Shown: positions 3,570 through 31,601, counted from the stretch's first letter. The stretch: 32,542 nt of DNA from Candidatus Omnitrophota bacterium (GCA_041652615.1 JBAZGZ010000001.1:1-32542); one strand, 5' to 3'. Numbers and translations are program-made. The notes: generated by a model from the sequence alone, not told the origin.

Positions 3570-4517
3570 ATGGATAAAATGGTAGTTTTGAGCGGCAACT
3601 CGAATAAAGAGTTAGCTGTAAAGATAAGTAAGGAATTGAAAGTTAAGCTTGCAGAAGTAATGACAGTTCGCTTTAGTGACGGAGAAATAAGGGTAAAGGT
3701 TGAAGATAATGTAAGAGGTAAAGATGTTTTTGTTGTCCAATCTAATTGCCCGCCGGTCAATGAAAACATAATGGAGCTTTTGATAATCATCGACGCGTTA
3801 AAACGGGCCTCGGCCAATCGCATAACCGCGGTGATACCTTATTTCGGTTATGCGCGCCAGGATAGGAAAGATCAGCCGCGCGTGCCTATAACCGCGAAAC
3901 TTGTGGCAAATCTTTTAACGGTGGCGGGAGCGAATCGTGTTTTAGCTCTTGATTTGCATGCCGGCCAGATTCAAGGTTTTTTTGATATACCGGTGGATCA
4001 CTTGTTTGCGATTAATGTTTTTGTCGATTATTTTAAGAAAATTAAAATAAAAAATCTTGTTATCGTGTCGCCGGATGTTGGCGGTATAAAGATGGCGAGG
4101 GCTTATGCAAAGAAATTTCATGCCGGTTTGGCAATTGTTGATAAAAGAAGAAATACCCCCGACGCTACTGAAGTAATGCATATTCTTGGCGAAGTCGAAG
4201 GTAAAAATGTTATTCTGGTTGATGATATAGTTGCAACTGGCAGTTCACTGGTTGAGGCAGCAAAAGCGCTCAAAGAGGCGGGAGCGAAGAAAATTTTTGC
4301 CGCTATTTCTCACGGAATACTTTCTGCCAATGCAGTAGAGAAGCTGGAAAATTCAAATATAGATTATCTTGTAATTACCGATTCTATTCCTCTGGGCGAG
4401 GAAAAGAAGAGTAAAAAAATAAAAGTTGTTTCGGTGAATAAATTATTCGCGGAAGCAATCAGAAGGATACATTTTGAGCAATCAATAAGCGTGCTTTTTG
4501 ATTCAATAAGGAGATGA
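3570..4517 (+). CDS. prs: Ribose-phosphate pyrophosphokinase
   Basis: AGGAGA Shine-Dalgarno upstream of the ATG. Prs-typical motifs are present: YFGYARQDRK and the VSPDVGG / DDIVATGSS PRPP-binding loop. Confidence 0.92.
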   Translation: MDKMVVLSGNSNKELAVKISKELKVKLAEVMTVRFSDGEIRVKVEDNVRGKDVFVVQSNCPPVNENIMELLIIIDALKRASANRITAVIPYFGYARQDRKDQPRVPITAKLVANLLTVAGANRVLALDLHAGQIQGFFDIPVDHLFAINVFVDYFKKIKIKNLVIVSPDVGGIKMARAYAKKFHAGLAIVDKRRNTPDATEVMHILGEVEGKNVILVDDIVATGSSLVEAAKALKEAGAKKIFAAISHGILSANAVEKLENSNIDYLVITDSIPLGEEKKSKKIKVVSVNKLFAEAIRRIHFEQSISVLFDSIRR

Positions 4518-4690
4518 AATGAGGCAGCAACTTTTCAAGCCTCTAGTGGCGTAGAAAAGCTGCGTAGCCGAATTTCACCCAGCACTAATTTTTATATAAG
4601 CAATTTAGTGCGAGGAAAATTAGTGCTGGGTTTAATTCGCACTATCATTTTTTCTTCGCCACTAGGGCTTGAAAAAATGATGTGCTCATT
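4518..4690. repeat. Composite structured repeat, locus A: left module (-), central hairpin, right module (+)
   Basis: Left module 4518-4577. Central perfect 15-bp stem is CCCAGCACTAATTTT (4578-4592) with AAAATTAGTGCTGGG (4616-4630). Right module 4631-4690 ends at the rplY Shine-Dalgarno. Confidence 0.85.
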
Positions 4691-4702
4691 AAAGGAGATA
4701 AC

Positions 4703-5458
4703 ATGGAAAGGGTAAAGATTGAAGCGACCTTAAGGGAAAAATTAGGTAAAGAAACAGCAAAGAAAGTAAGGTTTAAGGGTAATGCTCCCGCGATAGTTTA
4801 CGGTAAGGGCGTAAACCTTGCGGTTGAGATACAGGTGGCAGGGTTAAAAGCTTTAAGAGCAATACATTTTTCACAAGGTGCGGTAATCGATATAGATTTA
4901 ACCGGCCAGGATAAGAAAGAAAATTGTTCTGTTCTGATTAAGGATGTACAGTATCATCCATTAACAGAGGCGATTACGCATATAGACTTTATAAGGGTTT
5001 CTCTTGAGGAGAAAATAAAAGCGCACGTTCCTGTCGTCCTTAAGGGCGAGCCAAAAGGCGTGAAAGAAGAAGGAATCCTTTCCCAGATACTTTGGCAGCT
5101 TACCATTGAAGCTCTTCCTCTGGATATTCCGGAAAAAATTGAAGTAGATGTTACTCATCTAGGGATAGGTAATTCTGTGCATGTTGATGAAGTTAAAGTG
5201 CCGGAAAATGTAAAAATAGTTAATTCTCCCGATGAAACTGTTGCAACGGTTGTAGAGAAAGAAGAAGAAGTCGCGGCTACTGTCGCAGATGAAACAACCC
5301 CTACGGGCCCTGAGGTAATAAAAGAGAAGAAGGAAGTTGAAGAAGGTGAGGCCGAGGGCGAAGAGGGCAAGGCGAAAGGAAAAGAAGAGCCCAAAGGTAA
5401 AGAAGAGGCTAAGCCGAAAGAAGAAGCTAAAAAGGCTCCGGAAAAAGGGAAGAAATAA
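4703..5458 (+). CDS. rplY: Ribosomal protein L25 / general stress protein Ctc, with a long K/E-rich C-terminal tail
   Basis: ATG at 4703 is preceded by AAAGGAGA (4691-4698). The listed GTG at 4682 lies inside the repeat module. The prs-ctc-pth gene order is a common bacterial arrangement. Confidence 0.85.
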   Translation: MERVKIEATLREKLGKETAKKVRFKGNAPAIVYGKGVNLAVEIQVAGLKALRAIHFSQGAVIDIDLTGQDKKENCSVLIKDVQYHPLTEAITHIDFIRVSLEEKIKAHVPVVLKGEPKGVKEEGILSQILWQLTIEALPLDIPEKIEVDVTHLGIGNSVHVDEVKVPENVKIVNSPDETVATVVEKEEEVAATVADETTPTGPEVIKEKKEVEEGEAEGEEGKAKGKEEPKGKEEAKPKEEAKKAPEKGKK

Positions 5459-5573
5459 TGAACACATCATTTTTCCAAGCCGAAGGCGTCAGGAAAAATG
5501 ATAGTGTGAATTACCCCGCCGAACGTGGCAAAATTATCGAAGAGAATTTTGCCACATTTTTAGTGAGGCGGGG
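5457..5573 (-). repeat. Structured repeat, locus B: module (- orientation) plus CCCCGCC...GGCGGGG-clamped hairpin
   Basis: Module 5457-5513 overlaps the rplY stop codon (TAATGAACAC). Clamp is CCCCGCC 5514-5520 with GGCGGGG 5567-5573. Inner perfect 11-bp stem is GTGGCAAAATT / AATTTTGCCAC with loop ATCGAAGAG. Confidence 0.85.
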
Positions 5574-5644
5574 TGATGAGATAAGCGTTACGTACGTGGC
5601 TATCGAAATAATTACAGTTAATTGAAATTCAGAACATCAAATAA

Positions 5645-6208
5645 GTGAAAGTTATAGTTGGATTAGGCAATCCGGGTTTAAAATATAAAAATAATCGCCA
5701 TAATGCCGGATTTATGGTGCTTGATGAGATAGCCAAGCACGAAAAAGTTCTTTTTAAAAAAAGTTTCCTTTGGAACTGTTACTTTGTTAAGATAACGGCC
5801 GGGCAAGAGGTAATGCTTTTAATCAAGCCTCTGACATACATGAATAATTCGGGTCGTTGCGTTAAGAAGATTTTTTCAAAGTATGTGTTGGAAGCTAAAG
5901 ATTTATTGATAGTCTATGATGACGCTGATTTGCCTCTTGGCGCGCTTAGGTTAAAAACTTGCGGTTCAAGCGGCGGCCATCAGGGGTTAGCTTCGATAAT
6001 TACCCAGTTGAATTCGCAAGATTTTCCAAGATTAAAGCTTGGGATAGATAAAAATACCGGCGCAGATTTAGCTGATTATGTTCTTTCTGATTTTTCGGCG
6101 CAAGAAAAAGAAACAATTAGTGAATCAATTGCTAAGGCTGCTAGCGCGTGCGTAGATTGGGTTAAACGCGGAAACGAATACGTAATGCAAAATTATAATA
6201 ATTGTTAA
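5645..6208 (+). CDS. pth: Peptidyl-tRNA hydrolase
   Basis: GTG start gives VKVIVGLGNPG, the canonical Pth N-terminus. The NRHNAGF motif is present. Confidence 0.9.
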   Translation: MKVIVGLGNPGLKYKNNRHNAGFMVLDEIAKHEKVLFKKSFLWNCYFVKITAGQEVMLLIKPLTYMNNSGRCVKKIFSKYVLEAKDLLIVYDDADLPLGALRLKTCGSSGGHQGLASIITQLNSQDFPRLKLGIDKNTGADLADYVLSDFSAQEKETISESIAKAASACVDWVKRGNEYVMQNYNNC

Positions 6209-6315
6209 CGCGAATAAACGCGAATTTAGACCTGAATGGTTTTATTAAAGTATAAACGCGAATGCGCGCGAATAAAAAGGTTTATAGTTTTATTTTATTC
6301 GCGCGCATTCGCGTT
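6209..6315. repeat. CGCGAAT motif array plus perfect 23-bp palindrome directly after the pth stop
   Basis: CGCGAAT occurs at 6209, 6219, 6257 and 6267 (10-nt phasing within each pair). ATTCGCG occurs at 6297 and 6307. The stem is AACGCGAATGCGCGCGAATAAAA / TTTTATTCGCGCGCATTCGCGTT. Confidence 0.8.
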
Positions 6316-6354
6316 AGATTTGCGATAATTAGCGTTATAAAAGGAGGATAAAAC

Positions 6355-7129: not shown

Positions 7130-7393
7130 ATGTTTAAACCAAAATCAAAACCAAAACTAAAACTAAAAACAAAAACACCAAAGATGATCGGATTTAAAAA
7201 AAGCTGTTCGTTTTGCAAAAAAGAATTTAATATTGATTATAAAAATATCGAATTGCTTTCGCACTACATATCGTCAAGAGGCAAGATAGTATCCAGGCGT
7301 GTAAGTGGAAATTGCGCCAAGCATCAGCGAAAAGTTACAAAAGAGATGAAAATTGCACGGTTTTTGAGTATATTCCCGTATTTGGCTAGATAA
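7130..7393 (+). CDS. rpsR: Ribosomal protein S18 with a K/P-rich N-terminal extension
   Basis: GGAGAGG Shine-Dalgarno lies 9 nt before the ATG at 7130. The S18 core is present (CSFCKKEFNIDYKN...GKIVSRRVSGNCAKHQRKV...ARFLSIFPY). Confidence 0.85.
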   Translation: MFKPKSKPKLKLKTKTPKMIGFKKSCSFCKKEFNIDYKNIELLSHYISSRGKIVSRRVSGNCAKHQRKVTKEMKIARFLSIFPYLAR

Positions 7394-7400
7394 GATTTAT

Positions 7401-7522
7401 TACCCCGTCTCATGAAAGAGGTTGTGAAATTCTCTTCGATAATTTCACAATATTCGGCGGGGTTAATTCACACTATTATTTTTTCTGCGCCACTAGCGGC
7501 TGGAAAAAATGATGTGTTCAAT
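7401..7522 (+). repeat. Structured repeat, locus C: clamped hairpin plus module (+ orientation)
   Basis: This is the reverse-complement arrangement of locus B. Clamp is CCCCGTC 7403-7409 with GGCGGGG 7456-7462. Inner stem is TTGTGAAATT / AATTTCACAA with loop CTCTTCGAT, the reverse complement of the locus B loop. Module 7463-7522 ends at the rplI Shine-Dalgarno. Confidence 0.85.
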
Positions 7523-7538
7523 AAGGAGGTTTACTGCA

Positions 7539-7982
7539 GTGAAAGTTATTCTTTTAAAAGATATCGATAAATTAGGTAATGAAGGCAGTGTGTTGGAAGT
7601 TAAAGAAGGCTATGCGCGTAATTTCTTATTGCCGCAAAAGCTTGCCATGAAAGCAACCAAAGATAGCTTTCGTGAAATTGAAGAGATGAAAAAGAGAAAA
7701 GATAAAGTAGAGGAAAAAACAAAAAAAGAAGCTTTGGAGTTTAAGGTAAAGATAGAAGCCTTGTCGGTAACCATAACCCAGGAGGCAAAAGATACCGAAG
7801 AGATATACGGCTCAGTAGGAGAACAGCAAATTCTAAAAGCCTTGAAAGATGAAAGCGTGATCCTTGAGAAAGGTAAAATAGAAATAACTGAACCTATAAA
7901 AAAATTGGGCGTTTATAATTTAAAAGTCAGGCTTCATCCTGCTGTAGAGGCTAATCTACGCGTGTGGGTAATGAAGAAATGA
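7539..7982 (+). CDS. rplI: Ribosomal protein L9
   Basis: GTG at 7539 follows AAGGAGG (7523-7529) and gives VKVILLKDIDKLG, the canonical L9 N-terminus. The listed start at 7509 lies inside the repeat module. Confidence 0.88.
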   Translation: MKVILLKDIDKLGNEGSVLEVKEGYARNFLLPQKLAMKATKDSFREIEEMKKRKDKVEEKTKKEALEFKVKIEALSVTITQEAKDTEEIYGSVGEQQILKALKDESVILEKGKIEITEPIKKLGVYNLKVRLHPAVEANLRVWVMKK

Positions 7983-9383: not shown

Positions 9384-9429
9384 AAAAAGTTTGCGTAGTG
9401 GAAAGCGGGAAAATCTAAAAAAATCTTTT

Positions 9430-9612
9430 TACCCCGCCTCATAGAAGATGCTGGCTCATTGCCCCGCCTCGCAGGGGATGTCAAAAAAATCTGTTTCCCT
9501 GTAATAGGAAATTCCAGGGACTATGCCATATTTTTTTTGACGCTTGGCGGGGTTAATTCGCACTAGTATTTTTTCTTCGCCACTATTGGCTTGAAAAAAT
9601 ACTGTGCTCATT
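9430..9612 (+). repeat. Structured repeat, locus D: collapsed partial copy plus long clamped hairpin plus module (+)
   Basis: TACCCCGCCTCATAGAAGATGCTGGCTCATT (9430-9460) resembles an internally deleted unit. Clamp is CCCCGCC 9462-9468 with GGCGGGG 9546-9552. Nested stems are GTCAAAAAAAT/ATTTTTTTTGAC and TCCCTG/CAGGGA. Module 9553-9612. Confidence 0.8.
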
Positions 9613-9627
9613 AAATCTCTTATTGAG

Positions 9628-9656
9628 TTGACTTTAAATAAAAAAACCCTTATAAT
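9628..9656 (+). promoter_or_regulatory. Consensus sigma70-type promoter positioned for a leaderless bamA mRNA
   Basis: TTGACT (9628-9633), 17-nt spacer, TATAAT (9651-9656). The bamA ATG begins at 9663, 7 nt after the -10 hexamer, and there is no Shine-Dalgarno. Confidence 0.6.
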
Positions 9657-9662
9657 ATTTTA

Positions 9663-11936
9663 ATGCGAACACTAATTTCCGCTCTAACCATTTTCTTTGT
9701 ATCATTTTCCGCTCTAGCCTCAAGCGAAGATACTGTCGCGCGTATTGAAATCAAGGGCCATAAGTTTGTAAGCGACGCGACCATTGTTTCAAAAATAAAA
9801 CTTCGTTCCGGACAGACCTACAACGAGAACGTCATTAATGAAGACATAAAAAACCTTTACGCTACTGGTTTTTTTGAGACCGTTGAGGCAGCAAAAGAAA
9901 CCACGCCTGAGGGGGTAGTTGTTACTTTTAAAGTTAAAGAAAAACCCGTTCTTAAGAAGCTCGACATAGAAGGCGCTCATTTTATCCGCAAGAAAAAAAT
10001 TAGTGAAGCAATCGATATTAAAGAAGGAGCTTTTGTTGATGAGTACAAGCTGAAAGAAGTTGCCCGTAAAATAAAAGATCTTTATGCAACAAAAGGATTT
10101 AACCAGGCTAAAGTAACATACCAATTTGATATCAGCAAAGATAAGGATGAAGCTCGGGTTAAATATATTATTGAAGAAAAGGGCGTCCTTAAGGTGAGGC
10201 AGGTAAAAATTACGGGGAATAAAAGTATTTCTTCCGGCCGCATAATAAAGCTGTTAAAAACGAAAAAAGCCTGGCTTTTTAATCCAGGGCTTTTTAAGGA
10301 AGATGCTTTCAATGATGATGTTAAGAGGGTAACTGATTTTTACAGGCAAGAAGGTTTTAGTGATGTAAAAGTTGAGCCGGATTTAGTTTTTGGCGAAAAA
10401 GGGATTAATGTCAAAATAAATATTCAGGAAGGAAAGCGTTACTATATCGGTACGGTTAAAATTGAAGGCAACAAGGATGTTTCGCTTGCTGATATAACAA
10501 AGGTAATGATGCTTAAAACTAAAAGCGTGTATAGCGATCAGGCTGTTTACGAAGAGTCTTCACGAATAAGATCTGTTTACGTTGACAAGGGGTATATATT
10601 TGTACAGATTGAACCTCTGACTGTGCTTAATCCGGAAACCCAAAGTATCGACGTTACTTACAAGATAGTTGAAAATCAAGTTGCGTATATTGAACGCATA
10701 GATATTAAGGGAAATGTTAAAACAAAAGATAAAGTTATAAGAAGAGAGTTGCGTGTTTATCCGCAGGAAAAATTTGACGGAGCAAAGGTAAGAAAAAGTA
10801 AAGAGAAGCTTGAGAACCTGGGATATTTTGAAGAAGTAAGATTCGATACAGAGCCTGGCACAAAACCTGACCAGGTTGATCTTACTGTCGATGTTAAGGA
10901 AGCTAAGACCGGACATTTAAGCTTTGGCGGAGGATATAGTTCTATAGATCAATTTGTGGGATTTGTAGAGATAAGCCAGAAAAATTTCGATTATAGAAAT
11001 TTTTCAACTTTTTCGGGTGCCGGACAGGATTTAAGCCTATACGCAAGTCTTGGGACATTAACGAGTTATTACGAATTAAGTTTTACGAATCCATGGATAT
11101 TTGATAAACCATATTCTTTTGGCTTTGACGGCTACAAGAAAGGCCATAAGCAGGATGAAGATGTGGGTTACGGTTATAGCGAAGATATTGTTGGTGGGGA
11201 CTTGCGCTTGGGGCATGAGTTTAACGATGTTCTTAAGGGGCAGATCGCGTATCGTCTTGATAACGTAAAGATTACGGATGTTGTTGATAATGCTACGGCC
11301 GATCTTAAAGATGAAGTAGGTACTAATACCTTAAGCAGCGGAGAGGCTGCTCTTTTTTATGATACGCGTGATAATGTATTCTCGCCATTAAAAGGTGTGT
11401 ACTTTACTAATAATTTTCAACTTACCGGCGGCCCATTTGGCGGGACTAAAAATTTTGTAAAATATTCTACGCGATTCAGCTATTATTACCCGCTTATTAA
11501 TAAATCAGTTATAGAGCTTCGCTTAAGAGGTGGCTGGGCGGATCCGTTTTCTGATACCAATAAAGTGCCTATTTATGAAAGGTTCTTTGCCGGTGGCGCC
11601 AATTCCATAAGGGGTTACGAAGAAAGAAAAGTCGGCCCCGAAGATCCAGCTACTAATGATCCTCTTGGCGGTGAATCTATGTTTATTGCTAATATTGAAT
11701 ATACGTATCCATTGATGGATTTTTTAAAAGTAGCGACGTTTTTTGATAGTGGCGAGGTTTGGGAAAAGAATGGTGATTTTTTCAGTACTGACTTAAAAAA
11801 GAGTATCGGTCTGGGCATCAGGGTAAAAACACCGATAGGCCCTGTAAGTGTTGACTATGGCTGGCCGCTTGATTTGCTGCCCGGACAAGACAGCAAAGAA
11901 GGTCGTTTTCATTTTAACGTAAGCCGCGGATTTTAA
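9663..11936 (+). CDS. bamA: Outer membrane protein assembly factor BamA (Omp85 family)
   Basis: Signal peptide, repeated POTRA-like segments (IEIKGHKFVS, LDIEGAHFIRKKKI, VKITGNKSIS, VKIEGNKDVS, IDIKGNVKTKDKVIRREL) and a C-terminal beta-barrel ending in RGF. Confidence 0.92.
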   Translation: MRTLISALTIFFVSFSALASSEDTVARIEIKGHKFVSDATIVSKIKLRSGQTYNENVINEDIKNLYATGFFETVEAAKETTPEGVVVTFKVKEKPVLKKLDIEGAHFIRKKKISEAIDIKEGAFVDEYKLKEVARKIKDLYATKGFNQAKVTYQFDISKDKDEARVKYIIEEKGVLKVRQVKITGNKSISSGRIIKLLKTKKAWLFNPGLFKEDAFNDDVKRVTDFYRQEGFSDVKVEPDLVFGEKGINVKINIQEGKRYYIGTVKIEGNKDVSLADITKVMMLKTKSVYSDQAVYEESSRIRSVYVDKGYIFVQIEPLTVLNPETQSIDVTYKIVENQVAYIERIDIKGNVKTKDKVIRRELRVYPQEKFDGAKVRKSKEKLENLGYFEEVRFDTEPGTKPDQVDLTVDVKEAKTGHLSFGGGYSSIDQFVGFVEISQKNFDYRNFSTFSGAGQDLSLYASLGTLTSYYELSFTNPWIFDKPYSFGFDGYKKGHKQDEDVGYGYSEDIVGGDLRLGHEFNDVLKGQIAYRLDNVKITDVVDNATADLKDEVGTNTLSSGEAALFYDTRDNVFSPLKGVYFTNNFQLTGGPFGGTKNFVKYSTRFSYYYPLINKSVIELRLRGGWADPFSDTNKVPIYERFFAGGANSIRGYEERKVGPEDPATNDPLGGESMFIANIEYTYPLMDFLKVATFFDSGEVWEKNGDFFSTDLKKSIGLGIRVKTPIGPVSVDYGWPLDLLPGQDSKEGRFHFNVSRGF

Positions 11937-12019
11937 TGAGCGTATTATTTTTTCAAGCCTCAAGTGGCGTAGGAAAAATAATAGCGCGAATTATCCCCGA
12001 GAGTAGCGATGGGGGGGGG
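11935..12019 (-). repeat. Structured repeat, locus E: module (- orientation) plus short CCCC...G9 hairpin
   Basis: Module 11935-11994 overlaps the bamA stop codon (TAATGAGCG). Its stem sequence differs from other copies but pairing is kept (TATTATTTTT / AAAAATAATA). CCCC is at 11995-11998 and a G9 run at 12011-12019. Confidence 0.8.
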
Positions 12020-12133
12020 TAATGAATATCCAGCCAACCCTAAAGACAATCGTAAATCTGCTCATATGCATGGGTATCTTGAGCGTAAAAAGTTAAATAC
12101 GAACTACTAACGTTTATTAAAAAGGAGGAAACA

Positions 12134-12894: not shown

Positions 12895-13941
12895 ATGTTG
12901 AAGCTGAAACTTTCGGAAATTGCAAAGCTTGTAGGGGGAGAGTTAAGCGGAGATCCTGAAATCGTCATAACCGGCATTTCAGGAATAAAAGAAGCAAAAG
13001 AAGGCGAAATAACTTTTTTAGCTAATCCGAAATACGATTCTTTGCTGCAGGCTACTCATGCTTCGGCAGTTATTACCTCAAAAGAAACAGAAAACTCGAT
13101 TAGACCCACCATTAAGACCGATAATCCTTCAGTCGCCTTTGCAAAAATCGTAAACGTATTTGCGCCAAACGCTATTTGTCATCCAAAAGGAATCCATCCA
13201 AGCGCAGTAATATCTTCAAAAGTAAAACTGGGGAAAGGTGTTGCTGTGGGTGCGCATGTTATTATCGAAGACAACAGCGAAATTGGTGATGGCACGATAA
13301 TTTATGGTAATTGCTACATAGGCAACGATACGAAGATAGGGGAAAAAGCAATTATTTACCCAAATGTTTCGATAAGAGAAAGAATCAGCATTGGCAACAA
13401 TGTAATTATCCATTGTGGAGCTGTTATAGGCAGTGACGGTTTTGGCTTTGCTAAAGTTAAAGGCGTACAGGAGAAAATTCCTCAAATCGGAACAGTGATA
13501 ATCGAGGATGATGTTGAAATCGGCGCAAATGTTACTATTGACAGGGCGCGGTTTGATAAAACATTCATCGGTAAAGGTACTAAAATTGATAATCTTGTGC
13601 AGATTGCGCATAATGTTATGATAGGTGAAAATTGTCTTATAATTGCGCAGGCTGGCATTTCAGGGAGTACGGTTTTGGGAAGAGAGGTTATTATTGCTGG
13701 CCAGGCCGGGCTTGTGGGGCATATAACTGTTGGCGATAATGCCATTGCCGCGGCACAAGCGGGTGTTACTAAGTCAATACCACCAAAGACTATGGTTTCA
13801 GGATATCCTGCCAGGCCGCACGATGTCGCTAAGCGTGTAAATGCCTGTGTCCAGGGGTTACCTAAATTGTACAGCAAGATAAAGGAATTAGAGCAAAAAA
13901 TTGAAGAGCTTGAAGCAAAATTTGAGAATAAAAATGGATAA
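12895..13941 (+). CDS. lpxD: UDP-3-O-acylglucosamine N-acyltransferase
   Basis: The N-terminal [12 protein letters not shown]...ITFLANPKY motif is LpxD-typical. A long hexapeptide-repeat beta-helix follows. Confidence 0.9.
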
Positions 13942-15241
13942 ACAAAAAACAATAAAAGCAAAAGTGTTATTTGAGGGCGTTGGGTTACATAGCGGCCAGA
14001 GAACAAAGATTGAAATCCTCCCGGCCCAGGCAAATACCGGGATAATTTTTATACGCCAGGATGCCGGAGGTCAGTTGATAAAAGGTGATTTTTGTTCTTT
14101 GGTTGCTCCGGAAAAATTTCCCCGCCGCACCTCGATAGGCGTAAAGGATATTTATATTCACACCGTAGAACATCTAATGGCGGCTTTCCATTTGCTAAAA
14201 ATTGATAATGCTCAGATTAATGTTTGGGGAGAGGAAATCCCTGGCATGGATGGAAGCGCAAAAGAGTTTGTTGATAAAATTAAAAATGCTGGAATTGCAG
14301 AGCTTGACGCGATTGTAAATTGTATTGTTATAAAGGAGCCGCTTTGGGTTGAAGAGGGGTCTTCGACTATAGTTGCGTTACCATATCCGTCTTTAAGAAT
14401 TTCTTACGCGCTAAAATATGATAACCCTCTTATCGGCTCAGGTTATGTTGATTTAATCATAGACGGTAATGCGACAGAAAATGTTTTTCAGGCGCGCACG
14501 TTTTGTCTTGATGATGAAGTAAAACATCTTCAAGATAGCGGGTTGGGTAAAGGTGCGAATTACGACAATACTCTGGTGGTTTCTAAGGACGGTGTATTGA
14601 AAAATAAATTACGGTTTCCTGATGAATTTACCCGGCACAAAATTTTAGACTTAATCGGTGATTTGTATCTGGCCGGTCCGATTAGAGGCTATATTATTGC
14701 GATTAAAAGCGGGCATTCTCTTAATATGAAACTTCTTGAGAAGCTGCGCAGGTACAAAGAAAAAAATATCGGTGCGGGAGTTGGATCTCAGACTTCATTT
14801 GTTCCCAGAGGTAATCATTTAAGTAGTGAAGATATAATGAAACTCCTTCCTCATCGTTATCCGTTTTTGCTTGTTGACAGAATTGTTGAGATGGAAAAAT
14901 TTAAACGTGCGGTAGGTATAAAGAATGTTACGATGAATGAGCATTTTTTTCAGGGACATTTCCCACAACGACCGGTTATGCCCGGAGTTTTGATAATTGA
15001 GGCGATGGCGCAAGTCGGTGGGGTTCTTATGCTTGCAAGTGAAGAAAACAAAGGAAAACTTGCATATTTTATGGCGGCTAATCACGCAAAATTTCGCAAA
15101 CCAGTTGTTCCCGGGGATCAACTGGTTATGGAAGTGGTTGCCGGGAAAATACGTACTAAAACAGGTACAGTCTATGCAAAAGCTTTTGTTGATGATAAGC
15201 TTGTGGCTGAGGCTGAACTTATGTTTGCGCTTGTGGACTAG
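13934..15241 (+). CDS. lpxC-fabZ: Fused UDP-3-O-acyl-GlcNAc deacetylase / 3-hydroxyacyl-ACP dehydratase
   Basis: ATG at 13934 overlaps the lpxD stop by 8 nt. The LpxC part has GVGLHSG and HTVEHL motifs. The FabZ hot-dog part has [13 protein letters not shown] and FFQGHFP...PVMPGVL. Confidence 0.9.
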
Positions 15242-15246
15242 TAATC

Positions 15247-16023
15247 ATGAAAAATAAAATTGATTCAAGAGCGATTGTAAGCAAAAAAGCAGAGATCGAT
15301 AAAAATGTAACCATTGGCCCCTATGCCGTAATAGGGCCTTCTGTTAAATTGGGCTCTGGGAGCGTGATTGACGCGTTTGCGCAGGTAATCGGTAATACTA
15401 CGATAGGTAAAAATTGCCATATTTTTTCTTACGCGGTGCTAGGGAATGCTCCACAGGATTTAAAATATAAAGGAGAGCAAAGTTTTCTTGTCGTTGGCAA
15501 TAATAATATTATCCGTGAATTTGTAACTATGAATGTTGGAACAGAAGAAGGCTCTAGAACTATAGTTGGGAATAATAATCTTATTATGGCTTACTCACAT
15601 ATAGCCCATGATTGTGCTGTGGGCAGCGATAATGTTTTGGCAAATTGCGCGACATTAGCCGGTCACGTTACCATAGAAGACAGGGTAACCGTGGGTGGAA
15701 TAGTCGCGATACATCAGTTTTGTCGTTTGGGAACTCTTTCTATGATCGGGGGCTGTTCAAAAGTTGTTCAGGATGTACCTCCTTATTCTGTAAGCGATGG
15801 GCATCCGACTGTTGTCAGGGGTTTGAACCTTATAGGATTAAGACGGGCAAAGTTTCCTCAAACTACAATAAGCTTGCTAAAGAAAGTGTTCAAAATTATT
15901 TTTTTTGATAACCATCCTTTGGCAAAAGCAAAAGAGCTGATAGTTAAAGATTTTCCCGGAATACAAGAAGTCGATTATCTGCTTAAGTTTATTTCATCGT
16001 CAGAGCGCGGCATCTGTAGATAA
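15247..16023 (+). CDS. lpxA: Acyl-ACP:UDP-GlcNAc O-acyltransferase
   Basis: Hexapeptide-repeat beta-helix plus the C-terminal helical domain typical of LpxA (GLNLIGLRRAKF). Position in the lpx cluster supports the call. Confidence 0.9.
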   Translation: MKNKIDSRAIVSKKAEIDKNVTIGPYAVIGPSVKLGSGSVIDAFAQVIGNTTIGKNCHIFSYAVLGNAPQDLKYKGEQSFLVVGNNNIIREFVTMNVGTEEGSRTIVGNNNLIMAYSHIAHDCAVGSDNVLANCATLAGHVTIEDRVTVGGIVAIHQFCRLGTLSMIGGCSKVVQDVPPYSVSDGHPTVVRGLNLIGLRRAKFPQTTISLLKKVFKIIFFDNHPLAKAKELIVKDFPGIQEVDYLLKFISSSERGICR

Positions 16024-16028
16024 CGTTT

Positions 16029-16124
16029 GTATAGAAGCGGATATCCGCGGATCAAAACGCGGATAAATGCAAGCGAGTTGCTGTGCGTAAATCCGCGTAA
16101 GTATCCGCGGTAATCCGCTTCTAC
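16029..16124. repeat. Mirrored GCGGAT motif array after the lpxA stop
   Basis: GCGGAT occurs at 16037, 16047 and 16059. ATCCGC occurs at 16091, 16103 and 16113. Spacing is symmetric (10/12 and 12/10). The motifs are complementary but the spacers between them are not. Confidence 0.8.
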
Positions 16125-16153
16125 AAAATAGAGATTTACAAATATTAGCGTAT

Positions 16154-22010: not shown

Positions 22011-22053
22011 ATTATCATTGGCGAAAAATATCCATGAACGATTTACACAGAAT

Positions 22054-22117
22054 ATGTAGGGGATGGGCTTGCCCCATCCCGTATTATTACGGGCGGGGAC
22101 AAGCCCCGCCCCTACAT
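22054..22117 (-). repeat. GC-rich four-segment double hairpin inside the radical SAM operon
   Basis: The sequence is ATGTAGGGGATGGGCTTGCCCCATCCCGTATTATTACGGGCGGGGACAAGCCCCGCCCCTACAT. It forms two adjacent hairpins closed by the outer stem ATGTAGGGG / CCCCTACAT. Confidence 0.8.
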
Positions 22118-22125
22118 AATACATT

Positions 22126-23435: not shown

Positions 23436-23567
23436 GGAAAAGTAGAGAGTAGAGGGTAGAAAGTAGAGAGATAGAAATAGCCAGAGATTTTAAAAATTTA
23501 AAATCTTTAGCTAGAATGATAATGTTAATTCTTCCTCTCTACCCTCTACTTTCTACTCTCTACTTCT
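23436..23567. repeat. 7-nt tandem repeat palindrome in the divergent promoter region
   Basis: Left arm: AGTAGAG AGTAGAG GGTAGAA AGTAGAG AGATAGA. Right arm: CTCTCTACCCTCTACTTTCTACTCTCTACTTCT. The centre holds the palindrome AGATTTTAAAAATTTAAAATCT. Confidence 0.8.
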
Positions 23568-23577
23568 AAATTATCAT

Positions 23578-24699
23578 ATGAATTCGCTATATATCCACAT
23601 CCCATTTTGCGCTAAAAAATGCCTTTATTGCGATTTTTATAGTATCGGCCATGACGAGAAACTTGCTTCAAAATTCATTGATATTTTATCTGCTCAAGCC
23701 ATGACTCTAAAAATACAGTTTGATACCATTTATATTGGCGGCGGTACACCTTCCGTTCTTGAGTCGCGATTGCTTGAGAAGTTGCTAAAAAGCCTAAAAG
23801 CCGCCGCTTGCAATGTTAAGGAGTTTACCATTGAGGCGAACCCGGAAAGCATTACCGCTAAAAAATTGAAATTATTTTTAAACTACGGAATTAACCGTAT
23901 CAGCATAGGCGTCCAGTCGTTTGATGATAAAAAATTAGCTAAATTAGGCAGGATTCATTCCGGGCAAAAAGCTATTGAAGCTGTAAACTTGGCTAAGCAT
24001 AGCGGGTTTAAAAATATCAGTATCGATTTGATCTTTGGAGTTTGGCAGGAAACCTTAGGTGCGTGGAAAGAGGAGCTCAAAGCAGCGATGGAATTGCCCT
24101 TAAAACATATTTCCTGCTATTCGCTTAGCTATGAAAAACATGCCAAGCTTTCTGCTCTGCTTAAGGAAAAAAGTATAATTCCTCAAAGCGATGAGGTAAC
24201 GGTTAAAATGTATGAGCACGCTATTGATTATCTTGGAAAAAATAAATTCTTTCACTATGAAATTTCAAATTTTTCAAAAGCCGGTTTCCAGTGTAAGCAT
24301 AATCTGAATTATTGGCAAAATAATTCTTATGTGGGATTGGGTCCTTCGGCTGTGTCGTACAGGGAAGGTAAAAGAGCGAAAAATATCTCGGACGGTAAAA
24401 AATATATTGAACTGGCGGGTAAGGGTAAGTCTACTGTAGTTTTTAATGAAAAACTTTCGCTCGAAATGCAGGCAAAAGAAACCGCTGCTATAAAAATTCG
24501 TACTACGGAAGGCATTGATTTTGACTGGTTTAAAAAAAGAACCGGATTTGATTTTTTGAAATTAGAGAGCGATGACATTGACTTTCTGATCAAACAAAGG
24601 CTTTTGAAATATAAAAAATCAAGATCAAAGGAATCGGGGATCGCGCTGACAAGAAAAGGTTTTTTATTCTGCGATTCTGTTTCCGCGCAATTGTTGTAA
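23578..24699 (+). CDS. hemW: Radical SAM heme chaperone / oxygen-independent coproporphyrinogen oxidase-like protein
   Basis: LYIHIPFCAKKCLYCDF CX3CX2C motif close to the N-terminus. GGGTPS motif and HemN family length. Confidence 0.85.
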   Translation: MNSLYIHIPFCAKKCLYCDFYSIGHDEKLASKFIDILSAQAMTLKIQFDTIYIGGGTPSVLESRLLEKLLKSLKAAACNVKEFTIEANPESITAKKLKLFLNYGINRISIGVQSFDDKKLAKLGRIHSGQKAIEAVNLAKHSGFKNISIDLIFGVWQETLGAWKEELKAAMELPLKHISCYSLSYEKHAKLSALLKEKSIIPQSDEVTVKMYEHAIDYLGKNKFFHYEISNFSKAGFQCKHNLNYWQNNSYVGLGPSAVSYREGKRAKNISDGKKYIELAGKGKSTVVFNEKLSLEMQAKETAAIKIRTTEGIDFDWFKKRTGFDFLKLESDDIDFLIKQRLLKYKKSRSKESGIALTRKGFLFCDSVSAQLL

Positions 24700-24721
24700 A
24701 TCGTTTTTATTAGTGTATAAT
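24694..24721 (+). promoter_or_regulatory. Candidate promoter firing into repeat locus F
   Basis: TTGTAA (24694-24699, includes the hemW stop), 16-nt spacer, TATAAT (24716-24721). The predicted start is ~24728, at the left edge of the repeat. Confidence 0.4.
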
Positions 24722-24723
24722 TA

Positions 24724-24892
24724 AATGAAGCAGCAACTTTTCAAGTCGAAGACGTAGAAAAGTTGCGTAGCTGAATTTAACCCCCACACCAATTGCAAAA
24801 CCAAATGCGTTGGCCCAACAATTGGTGTGGGGGTTAATTCGCACTATCATTTTTCCTGACGCCTAGAGGCTTGGAAAAATGATGTGCTCATT
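24724..24892. repeat. Composite structured repeat, locus F: left module (-), central hairpin, right module (+)
   Basis: Same architecture as locus A. Left module 24724-24780. Central perfect 15-bp stem is CCCCCACACCAATTG (24781-24795) with CAATTGGTGTGGGGG (24819-24833). Right module 24834-24892 ends 3 nt before the AAGGAGG. Confidence 0.85.
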
Positions 24893-24907
24893 AAAAAGGA
24901 GGCAAGT

Positions 24908-31522: not shown

Positions 31523-31592
31523 ACACGGATGCAAACGGATGTCGCGGATAAAGACATGCGTTTGAATCCGAAATAATCCGTGACATCCGCGT
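31523..31592. repeat. Mirrored CGGAT motif array after the kdsD stop
   Basis: CGGAT ends at 31530, 31540 and 31549. ATCCG starts at 31566, 31576 and 31585. Spacing is symmetric (10/9). The array is preceded by a T8 run immediately after the stop. Confidence 0.75.
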
Positions 31593-31601
31593 TTTAACGG
31601 G

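Follow-up and report, generated by a model that had tools for sequence, protein, structure and literature searches.

The window analyzed here, a stretch of 32,542 nucleotides from a Candidatus Omnitrophota bacterium, carries several copies of a hairpin-forming module, one of which ends directly at the Shine-Dalgarno sequence (SD) of the ribosomal protein gene rplI. The module is very probably a copy of a mobile repeat family. Docking of one of its ends onto SDs is real, general, strictly oriented and far beyond chance. As an explanation of this geometry we lean, with some reserve, towards an insertion bias combined with purifying selection, without a dedicated function of the module.

The constant part of the repeat, here named H3, is an imperfect palindrome of ~62 nt with the arrangement TTAATTC-GCACTATCATTTTTTC..variable tip/loop..GAAAAAATGATGTGC-TCATTA(A). 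Three forms were found, namely solo H3, H2-H3 (short form) and H1-H2-H3 (long form). H2 is a GC-clamped hairpin with a conserved CCCCGCCTCACAGAAGAGGCTGAAAAATTCTCT..GATAATTTTTCAGCGTTCGGCGGGG in many copies, and H1 corresponds approximately to the reverse complement of H3 (61 nt, 74% complementary). The long form has terminal inverted repeats (AATGAG../..CTCATT) and solo H3 is itself palindromic; no clear terminal inverted repeats were seen in the short form (TTACCCCGCC...GCTCATTA). The copies are non-coding and A+T-rich and range in size from 62 to 250 nt. The 32.5-kb window contains six H3 copies and two H1 copies. Four of the H3 copies are located on the plus strand (A, B, C and D) and two on the minus strand (E and F, Table 1).

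Species-representative genomes were scanned with a pattern from the 5' arm of H3. Fetched loci and syntenic relatives are labelled with L-numbers (e.g. L033, L091). The repeat was present in at least 13 metagenome-assembled genomes; most true hits among the matches listed belonged to 11 genomes labelled Candidatus Omnitrophota, with two other genomes in addition. At least 14 loci came from one metagenome-assembled genome. With an nhmmer profile, 75 H3 matches were obtained in the window and the listed loci from these at least 13 genomes. A pattern scan of viral_contigs gave 10 chance matches, none of them H3, and literature searches for Omnitrophota repeats gave no description.

Module ends relative to Shine-Dalgarno sequences and stop codons

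The first-pass annotation of the window had quoted three junctions between module, SD and start codon, and all three strings were read back correctly. At rplY the sequence is ..GTGCTCATTA (up to 4691), AAGGAGATAAC and ATG (4703), so that H3 ends 11 nt before the start codon. At rplI it is ..GTGTTCAATA (up to 7523), AGGAGGTTTACTGCA and GTG (7539); region 7463–7541 consists of the H3 hairpin of copy B, followed by AGGAGG (7524–7529) and the GTG. The third junction reads ..GTGCTCATTA (up to 24893), AAAAGGAGGCAAGT and ATG (24908), with H3 ending 14 nt before the start of a gene that the annotation had named the coiled-coil gene and that encodes a 167-aa protein with no Pfam match.

At these three junctions the gap between the H3 end and AGGAG(G) was 0–4 nt. 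The 0–3 nt previously given are correct if the conserved outer helix TTAAT/ATTAA is counted, but not for the core stem GCAC../..GTGC, which ends 6–9 nt before the SD. Similarly, the statement that plus-orientation modules end at the SD applies to copies A, B and C, but not to the fourth plus-strand copy D, which had not been listed. The starts at 4703 (rplY) and 7539 (rplI) are supported as the true ones, since homologue alignments begin there at residue 1. Additionally, module-free relatives retain ..ATAAGGAG..ATG/GTG at the rplI start. The MLIK N-termini were rightly regarded as an artefact: the mechanical open reading frames (ORFs) start inside the module at 4682, 7509 and 24884.

For a survey of the distance between module end and SD, 61 non-redundant H3 ends from the window and from loci among the matches listed were used. 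Since the sampling pattern lies in the 5' arm, the 3' flank was sampled without bias. An end was counted as SD-abutting if AGGA or GGAG followed within 0–5 nt, with a start codon 3–11 nt later and an ORF. In total, 30–32 of the 61 ends belonged to this class, about three quarters of them with a gap of 0–2 nt. Eight ends were flush with the stop of a gene on the opposite strand, where the TTA of the element is read as TAA and the offset is always 0. A further six were followed by an A-run and a GC hairpin and look like the terminator of a convergent gene, and 17 fell into another class.

As a null model, every tolerated intergenic position of the surveyed loci was scored, on either strand. A position was tolerated if no ORF was broken and no SD was parted from its start, with an 8-bp duplication allowed for. 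Only 1.0% of these positions were SD-abutting, or 1.8% if AA was required at +1/+2 (binomial p<1e-38); the gene calls of the model are crude, although even a tenfold error leaves a large excess. The orientation at SDs was 32:0. All 12 long forms found with an H1 profile had an SD at the H3 end, and at the opposite side (H2 or H1), 0 of 46 ends were flush with an SD and ORF on the other strand. Among control SDs, 21% were preceded by TAA and 15% by TTA, and an A-rich flank at +1 to +3 was present in both SD and non-SD classes. About half of the copies are located away from SDs, and a third of the copies are antisense to local genes. Random placement of module ends, which the annotation had named as an argument against a leader function, was therefore not what the survey found: placement is strongly non-random and strictly oriented.

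The genes downstream of SD-abutting copies are real and unrelated. They encode L25, L9, L32, RecA, glutamine synthetase (GlnA) and TyrRS and, furthermore, AdoHcyase, phosphoglucomutase (PGM), PNP, IMPase and YicC.

About 60% of the SD-abutting copies also have their left end 0–12 nt from the upstream gene. In such tight operon junctions no other placement is viable, and it could be argued that short spacers alone force insertions to touch both stop and SD, with neither targeting nor function. The ancestral prs/rplY junction, where the SD lay within prs and stop and start were separated by 1 nt, would agree with this. However, compaction alone is very improbable, since the tolerance null reaches 1–2% compared to 50% observed and the orientation is 32:0. 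Moreover, copy C and the copies of L054, L014, L062, L025 and L063 are still flush with the SD despite 25–440 nt of free upstream spacer, and copies E and F directly adjoin stops although their ancestral spacers measured 50–120 nt.

Table 1. Positions of the repeat copies and associated signals in the window
Feature	Position	Strand	Context
Copy A, long form	4516–4691 (H1 4519–4583, H2 ~4584–4631, H3 4632–4691)	+	Between prs stop TGA 4515–4517 and rplY SD
Left 8-bp target duplication AAGGAGAT	4508–4515	+	Now last codons and stop of prs; 8/8, offsets as in L069
Right 8-bp target duplication AAGGAGAT	4692–4699	+	Working SD of rplY (ATG 4703)
Copy E, short form	5456–5576	-	H3 end (TAATGAAC on + strand) supplies rplY stop TAA 5456–5458
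Copy B, short form	7399–7523 (H2 ~7403–7462, H3 7463–7523)	+	Fills spacer between rpsR (stop 7391–7393) and rplI
Native rplI translation start	SD AGGAGG 7524–7529, GTG 7539–7541	+	L9 alignment from residue 1
Copy D, short-type composite (truncated H2, then full H2-H3)	~9430–9613	+	Not at SD
Copy F	11934–12022	-	H3 end supplies bamA stop TAA 11934–11936; H2 aberrant (C/G run)
Copy C, long form	24722–24893	+	Ends 4 nt before GGAGG (24898–24902), ATG 24908

Orthologous sites and insertion signatures

Syntenic relatives of the window were obtained by a metagenome scan with DnaB. They share the gene order glmU-prs-rplY-pth-rpsF-ssb-rpsR-rplI-dnaB-bamA-skp-lpxD; L033 is syntenic with the window at ~80% nucleotide identity. 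The prs/rplY site is filled only in the window (copy A) and empty in L091, whose DnaB is 94% identical, and in ten other relatives. At rpsR/rplI, copy B is present in the window and in L091, and the site is empty in ~17 others, including L033, L092-96, L101, L109, L098 and L131. The rplY/pth site is filled in the same two (copy E) and empty in L092, L093 and L095, where the junction was read. Copy F at bamA/skp was found in the window only, with empty sites in L091, L033, L092, L094, L107 and L108. Between dnaB and bamA the window carries copy D on the plus strand, L033 a minus-strand copy flush with the dnaB stop and L091 none; the two copies thus differ in both orientation and position. Here ..AATCTTTTATT.. 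occurs once in L033 and L091, ahead of the conserved bamA promoter, where copy D has a flanking pair.

Two further pairs of filled and empty sites were found (L032 vs L058 and L056 vs L025), and for the solo H3 of L032 the sequence in the empty relative is TAA/ATA/AAGGAGG. Approximately 100 kb of L092–L096 contained zero copies. For strain-level empty sites, exact-protein look-ups with the window proteins gave no records. Because orthologous sites are empty in relatives, the copies represent recent insertions. Judged by this comparison, those at prs/rplY, rpsR/rplI and bamA/skp are recent insertions and not an ancestral leader.

A conserved cis-regulatory RNA controlling a regulon, be it a riboswitch, ribosomal-protein leader, attenuator or thermometer, is for practical purposes refuted by the empty orthologous leaders, and we give it next to no weight. 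It would be in agreement with the stable structure and its compensatory changes and with the ribosomal-protein genes (L25, L9 and L32) among those downstream. However, the downstream genes as a whole are functionally unrelated. In addition, Rfam at the gathering threshold gave no match to the module in the whole window, and at E<=1 only sub-threshold, hairpin-like microRNA matches over the modules, all in copy A. The SD is predicted not to be sequestered, and no terminator U-tract follows the hairpins. An integron attC or gene-cassette site was rejected as well, as the flanks are core housekeeping genes in conserved synteny and no integrase is present in the window.

Copy A carries the clearest insertion signature. 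The empty prs/rplY site of L091 reads GATTCAATAAGGAGATAATATGG, with the rplY SD inside the prs end and 1 nt between stop and start. The filled site of the window reads GATTCAAT[AAGGAGAT]GAA-ATGAGG...CTCATTA-[AAGGAGAT]AACATGG. The 8-bp target duplication AAGGAGAT (8/8) is the rplY SD itself and is confirmed by the empty site. The left duplicate keeps the prs end intact, with the stop changed from TAA to TGA, and the right duplicate, flush with H3, keeps rplY translatable. In L069 a duplication ATGGAGGT (8/8) was found at the same offsets, with a null probability of 0.004 per element; the upstream ORF now ends at a TGA within AATGAGG. In both cases the SD that adjoins H3 corresponds to the right-hand duplicate. 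A 7/8 duplication was found for copy D, with the flanks AATCTTTT (9422–9429) and AATCTCTT (9614–9621), and was checked against the ancestral sequence. Copy D lies upstream of the bamA promoter (TTGACT-17-TATAAT, 9628–9656), 49 nt from the ATG at 9663. The flanks of copy C show no visible target duplication. A model with ..GCTCA as the element end and TTA as flank was ruled out for copy A, whose empty site is without TTA.

The antisense copies are placed precisely after the last sense codon of the neighboring gene and before a stop triplet. The element supplies a working TAA, a TAA, TGA or TAG remains at the far end, and the C-termini of the proteins are unchanged. Examples are copy F (GGGG/TAA), the L033 copy (GAGGAG/TAA) and copy E (GGGG/TGA or TAG).

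Some relatives differ at these sites in other ways. The E copy of L091 (1076–1332, compared to 5459–5644 of the window) has ~70 extra nt between H3 and H2, which include a small CCCCGTAAGGGGG hairpin. Its H3 differs from that of the window by many paired changes, compared to ~88–90% identity in the H2 arm and in the spacer before pth. This suggests, on sequence grounds, module swapping or gene conversion between copies. In L090 (1–70; DnaB 95% identical) the rplI SD is preceded by a different short repeat, AAATTCGTG x3, and not by H3; the contig ends there. In the more distant relative L109 a diverged H3-like module (~959–1018) abuts an SD-like GAGAGG before rpsR, at the ssb/rpsR junction, which differs from every junction filled in the window. 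Several long forms (window 24700–24721; L014, L074, L075 and L015) are preceded by a shared -10-like box, TTATTAGTgTATAATtAA directly followed by ATGA..; copy C has the extended -10-like box TGTATAAT (24714–24721), and its upstream box is common to L014. Either the mobile unit extends to the left with a promoter or the elements begin at the transcript 5' end.

Proposed insertion bias and selection, and a possible role in the mRNA leader

The preferred explanation is that a non-autonomous, modular, hairpin-forming repeat, similar to a miniature inverted-repeat transposable element (MITE), has spread in Omnitrophota-type genomes, with insertion duplicating 8 bp of the target in at least two or three copies. 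Insertion would be biased, in an oriented manner, to A/purine-rich 8-mers, for which SDs are the prime intergenic example, and also to TAA/TTA where genes end. Purifying selection in such compact genomes would then remove copies that part an SD from its start, break an ORF or are wrongly oriented, so that survivors would be those flush with an SD (sense) or supplying a stop (antisense). The inserted element would be co-transcribed as a self-contained set of hairpins leaving the SD single-stranded. It would be tolerated as part of the leader or intercistronic RNA, and a dedicated host function would not be needed.

Several observations weigh against this explanation. In 30 short forms a search at fixed offsets found no target duplication. 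Short forms begin with (A)TTA before CCCC and end with TCATTA, which places TTA at both ends. At least 10 of them are preceded by CTCATTA directly before the CCCC, which indicates head-to-tail joining and suits another transposition chemistry better. An autonomous partner, that is a transposase with the same ends, did not turn up in the 8-kb slices around the matches, although no systematic search was run. Copies E and F are flush with stops despite their long ancestral spacers. The yceD/rpmF site is filled in two genomes whose flanking DNA is only 69% identical, and the H3 arms of the orthologous B copies of the window and L091 are ~95% identical compared to 58–72% at third codon positions. 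Finally, ordinary cut-and-paste transposition orients randomly, and 32:0 therefore needs either selection acting on the RNA or a target that is itself asymmetric.

A single-strand element of the HUH/Y1 type (IS200/IS605- or REP/RAYT-like) would account for part of these observations. Its short form and solo H3 would insert without duplication, in one orientation and directly 3' of TTA on one strand, and the ..TCATTA end would recreate its own target. The duplication-free short forms and their head-to-tail arrangement are in agreement with this, and so are the right end TCATTA and a left flank ending with (A)TTA in ~22/28 copies. Subterminal hairpins at both ends, the exact position of the antisense copies, which leaves the proteins unchanged, and the empty site corresponding to the solo H3 of L032 point in the same direction. 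Nevertheless, we consider such an element unlikely. Its chemistry does not make the clean 8-bp duplications seen in copy A, L069 and probably copy D. Under this model the H2 end of antisense copies should adjoin TAAGGAGG, which was seen in 0/46, and the left TTA may belong to the H2 stem, where it would pair with the TAA of GGGGTTAATTC. A Y1 (HUH) transposase or RAYT gene was not seen in the 8-kb slices, which do not cover the whole genomes. In L043 the interval between outward-facing H3 ends starts with a chorismate synthase-like gene, according to the N-terminal sequence. The mixed signatures may reflect two modes of mobilisation or the loss of left parts from older copies.

SD docking, unusual in its strict orientation, is only partly explained; candidates are oriented insertion at the SD, selection against other placements, or exaptation as a leader hairpin. 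The flush copies with free spacer, copies E and F at stops and the 32:0 orientation call for oriented target choice, selection at the RNA or translation level, or positive selection. Candidates for an oriented target are a purine-rich 8-mer or a TTA next to the SD.

The structure of the repeat bears on exaptation. A consensus fold of 44 H3 copies contains 22 pairs, of which 13 show compensatory double changes, and an invariant outer helix TTAA/TTAA. For copy B two hairpins were predicted (-48.7 kcal/mol, z=-4.3); the centroid structure leaves the SD unpaired. A promoter consensus scan found none inside the modules, the only strong promoter nearby being that of bamA. The annotation had taken a G-U wobble in copy C as a hint that the sense RNA is the folded species. 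This does not hold for the family: G.T and A.C mismatches in H3 stems are balanced (12:7 in SD-abutting copies and 8:11 in others, without significance), and folding of the antisense strand is no worse than that of the sense strand. A leader peptide encoded by H1 (ATGAGGCAGCAA..) was rejected because its length is not conserved, with a stop at codon 4 in L006. A sense-frame stop at CAT-TAA/TAG/TGA was rejected too, as an in-frame TGA lies just upstream, so that no ORF ends there.

Between the leader function and the insertion preference that the first-pass annotation had offered as alternatives, insertion is favored for the origin by the empty relatives, the identity of the copy A duplication with the SD, the unrelated downstream genes and the lack of an Rfam match. 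A leader role after insertion is a separate question. Here the module would be of mobile origin, with the SD-abutting copies kept because a hairpin followed by an SD helps the host, possibly as a 5'-terminal or intercistronic stabiliser against RNases, as an RNase III/E processing site uncoupling cistrons, or as an insulator holding the SD unpaired irrespective of the upstream sequence. The strict orientation at SDs argues for it. Predicted accessibility of the SD was higher than in control genes (0.53 vs 0.42, p=0.008), as was that of the region from SD to start (p=0.0008). The H3 arms of the orthologous B copies exceed the identity at synonymous sites, H2 shows compensatory changes, and the yceD/rpmF copy is kept in two genomes. 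Furthermore, the long forms directly after a -10 box would constitute the whole 5' untranslated region, with a 5'-proximal hairpin.

However, most orthologous sites are empty, and rplI, rplY, a tolQ-like gene and tyrS work without the module. The copies away from SDs or antisense to local genes and the missing strand-specific G-U signature speak against exaptation as well, and the accessibility effect is modest and in silico. Predicted SD accessibility and the conservation of the H3 arms hint weakly at a role as stabiliser, processing site or insulator in the mRNA leader, which is plausible as a sequence-based proposal. As the explanation of the geometry, exaptation is rather doubtful in our view. 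A bolder proposal can be put forward tentatively: a mobile family homing in one orientation onto SDs, which it either duplicates or adjoins directly, may have been co-opted phylum-wide as a portable mRNA leader, either as a self-folding hairpin cassette insulating and exposing the ribosome-binding site or as a processing or stabilising boundary between cistrons.

Bacterial MITEs such as Correia/NEMIS in Neisseria, ERIC/IRU in enterobacteria and Yersinia, and RUP in pneumococcus are intergenic stem-loops that are co-transcribed (Delihas, PMC2229807; Croucher et al., PMC3049150). Their effects on mRNA depend on orientation, with RNase III acting for Correia and RNase E for ERIC (PMC2229807, PMC3049150). 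Pneumococcus repeats are enriched between convergent genes and not upstream of genes (PMC3049150). The H3 repeat resembles these MITEs in being shorter than 200–250 bp, non-coding, A+T-rich, multi-copy and intergenic, with long stem-loops, a TA terminus, terminal inverted repeats in the long form, some target duplications and empty and filled sites; co-transcription with its neighbours is expected. In contrast, its duplication is 8 bp and not TA, its insertion signatures are mixed and it has no known partner insertion sequence. About half of its copies dock one end at an SD, in one orientation only; for those families no description of this was found in PMC2229807 and PMC3049150.

BOX elements of Streptococcus pneumoniae consist of the hairpin modules boxA, boxB and boxC in varying combinations at operon 5'/3' ends, and some wrongly called ORFs have their start or end within the repeat (PMC3049150). 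Modular hairpin boxes and ORF mis-calls are shared with the H3 repeat. The sequences are unrelated, however, SD-flush placement is not reported for BOX, and here H3 is constant with H1 and H2 varying.

REP/BIME elements with RAYT transposases and palindrome-associated elements derived from IS200/IS605 are lineage-specific imperfect palindromes, mostly without duplication, with a fixed orientation to a flanking motif and in head-to-tail or mosaic arrays. REPs are mostly found downstream of genes and not at SDs. The H3 repeat shares with them the imperfect palindromes, the absence of duplications in most copies, the orientation to a short motif, the head-to-tail arrays and a lineage-specific sequence. 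It differs by three copies with 8-bp duplications and by the lack of a RAYT/Y1 gene identified in the 8-kb slices. Stabiliser hairpins and insulators at 5' ends (ompA 5' untranslated region, Bacillus cryIIIA STAB-SD, synthetic RiboJ-type) are non-mobile, confined to single loci and of demonstrated function. As in the H3 repeat, a stable hairpin stands directly 5' of an exposed SD, in some cases at a predicted transcript 5' end; unlike them, the H3 repeat is mobile and is known here from sequence alone.

If docking reflects real targeting or selection, dozens of housekeeping genes in each genome, including those of ribosomal proteins, recA, glnA and tyrS, would have had their 5' leaders and intercistronic regions rewritten in a little-studied and mostly uncultured phylum. 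This would constitute a natural experiment on how a hairpin before the SD affects translation and mRNA decay, and might provide a compact natural insulator part. For annotation, gene callers extend ORFs into the module (MLIK.. and MMCS.. N-termini), which leads to systematically mis-called starts, and the repeats probably also break metagenomic assemblies. Since some copies carry 8-bp duplications and others are flanked by TTA without duplication, the mechanism of mobilisation appears to be one not yet characterised.

Additional features of the window

The near-consensus bamA promoter TTGACT-17-TATAAT ends 6 nt before the ATG, with no SD (9628–9665). This arrangement is kept in all relatives examined (L033, L091, L092, L094, L095, L107 and L108), and bamA appears, from its sequence, to be leaderless.

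Other repeats are present as well. The pth/rpsF spacer (6205–6330) contains recurring AACGCGAAT motifs together with a perfect inverted repeat of 23 bp (6255–6277 and 6293–6315) unrelated to H1, H2 or H3, which could be a bidirectional terminator or belong to another repeat family. A palindrome with 60-nt arms (72% complementary), rich in ATCCGCG/CGCGGAT, is located in the lpxA/lpxI spacer (16012–16143), and the same heptamer recurs upstream of an lptC-like gene (31530–31600). These regions may represent a second repeat family or protein-binding sites. Two large inverted repeats were found elsewhere: paired GC-rich hairpins with a radical SAM gene on either side (22053–22118) and, in the divergent spacer that precedes the gene at 23578, a repeat with purine-rich arms of 40 nt (AGTAGAGAGTAGAGGGTAGAAAG..; 23440–23565). 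Finally, a single ORF (13901–15241) encodes an LpxC-FabZ fusion (Pfam LpxC and FabA-like), with LpxI downstream.

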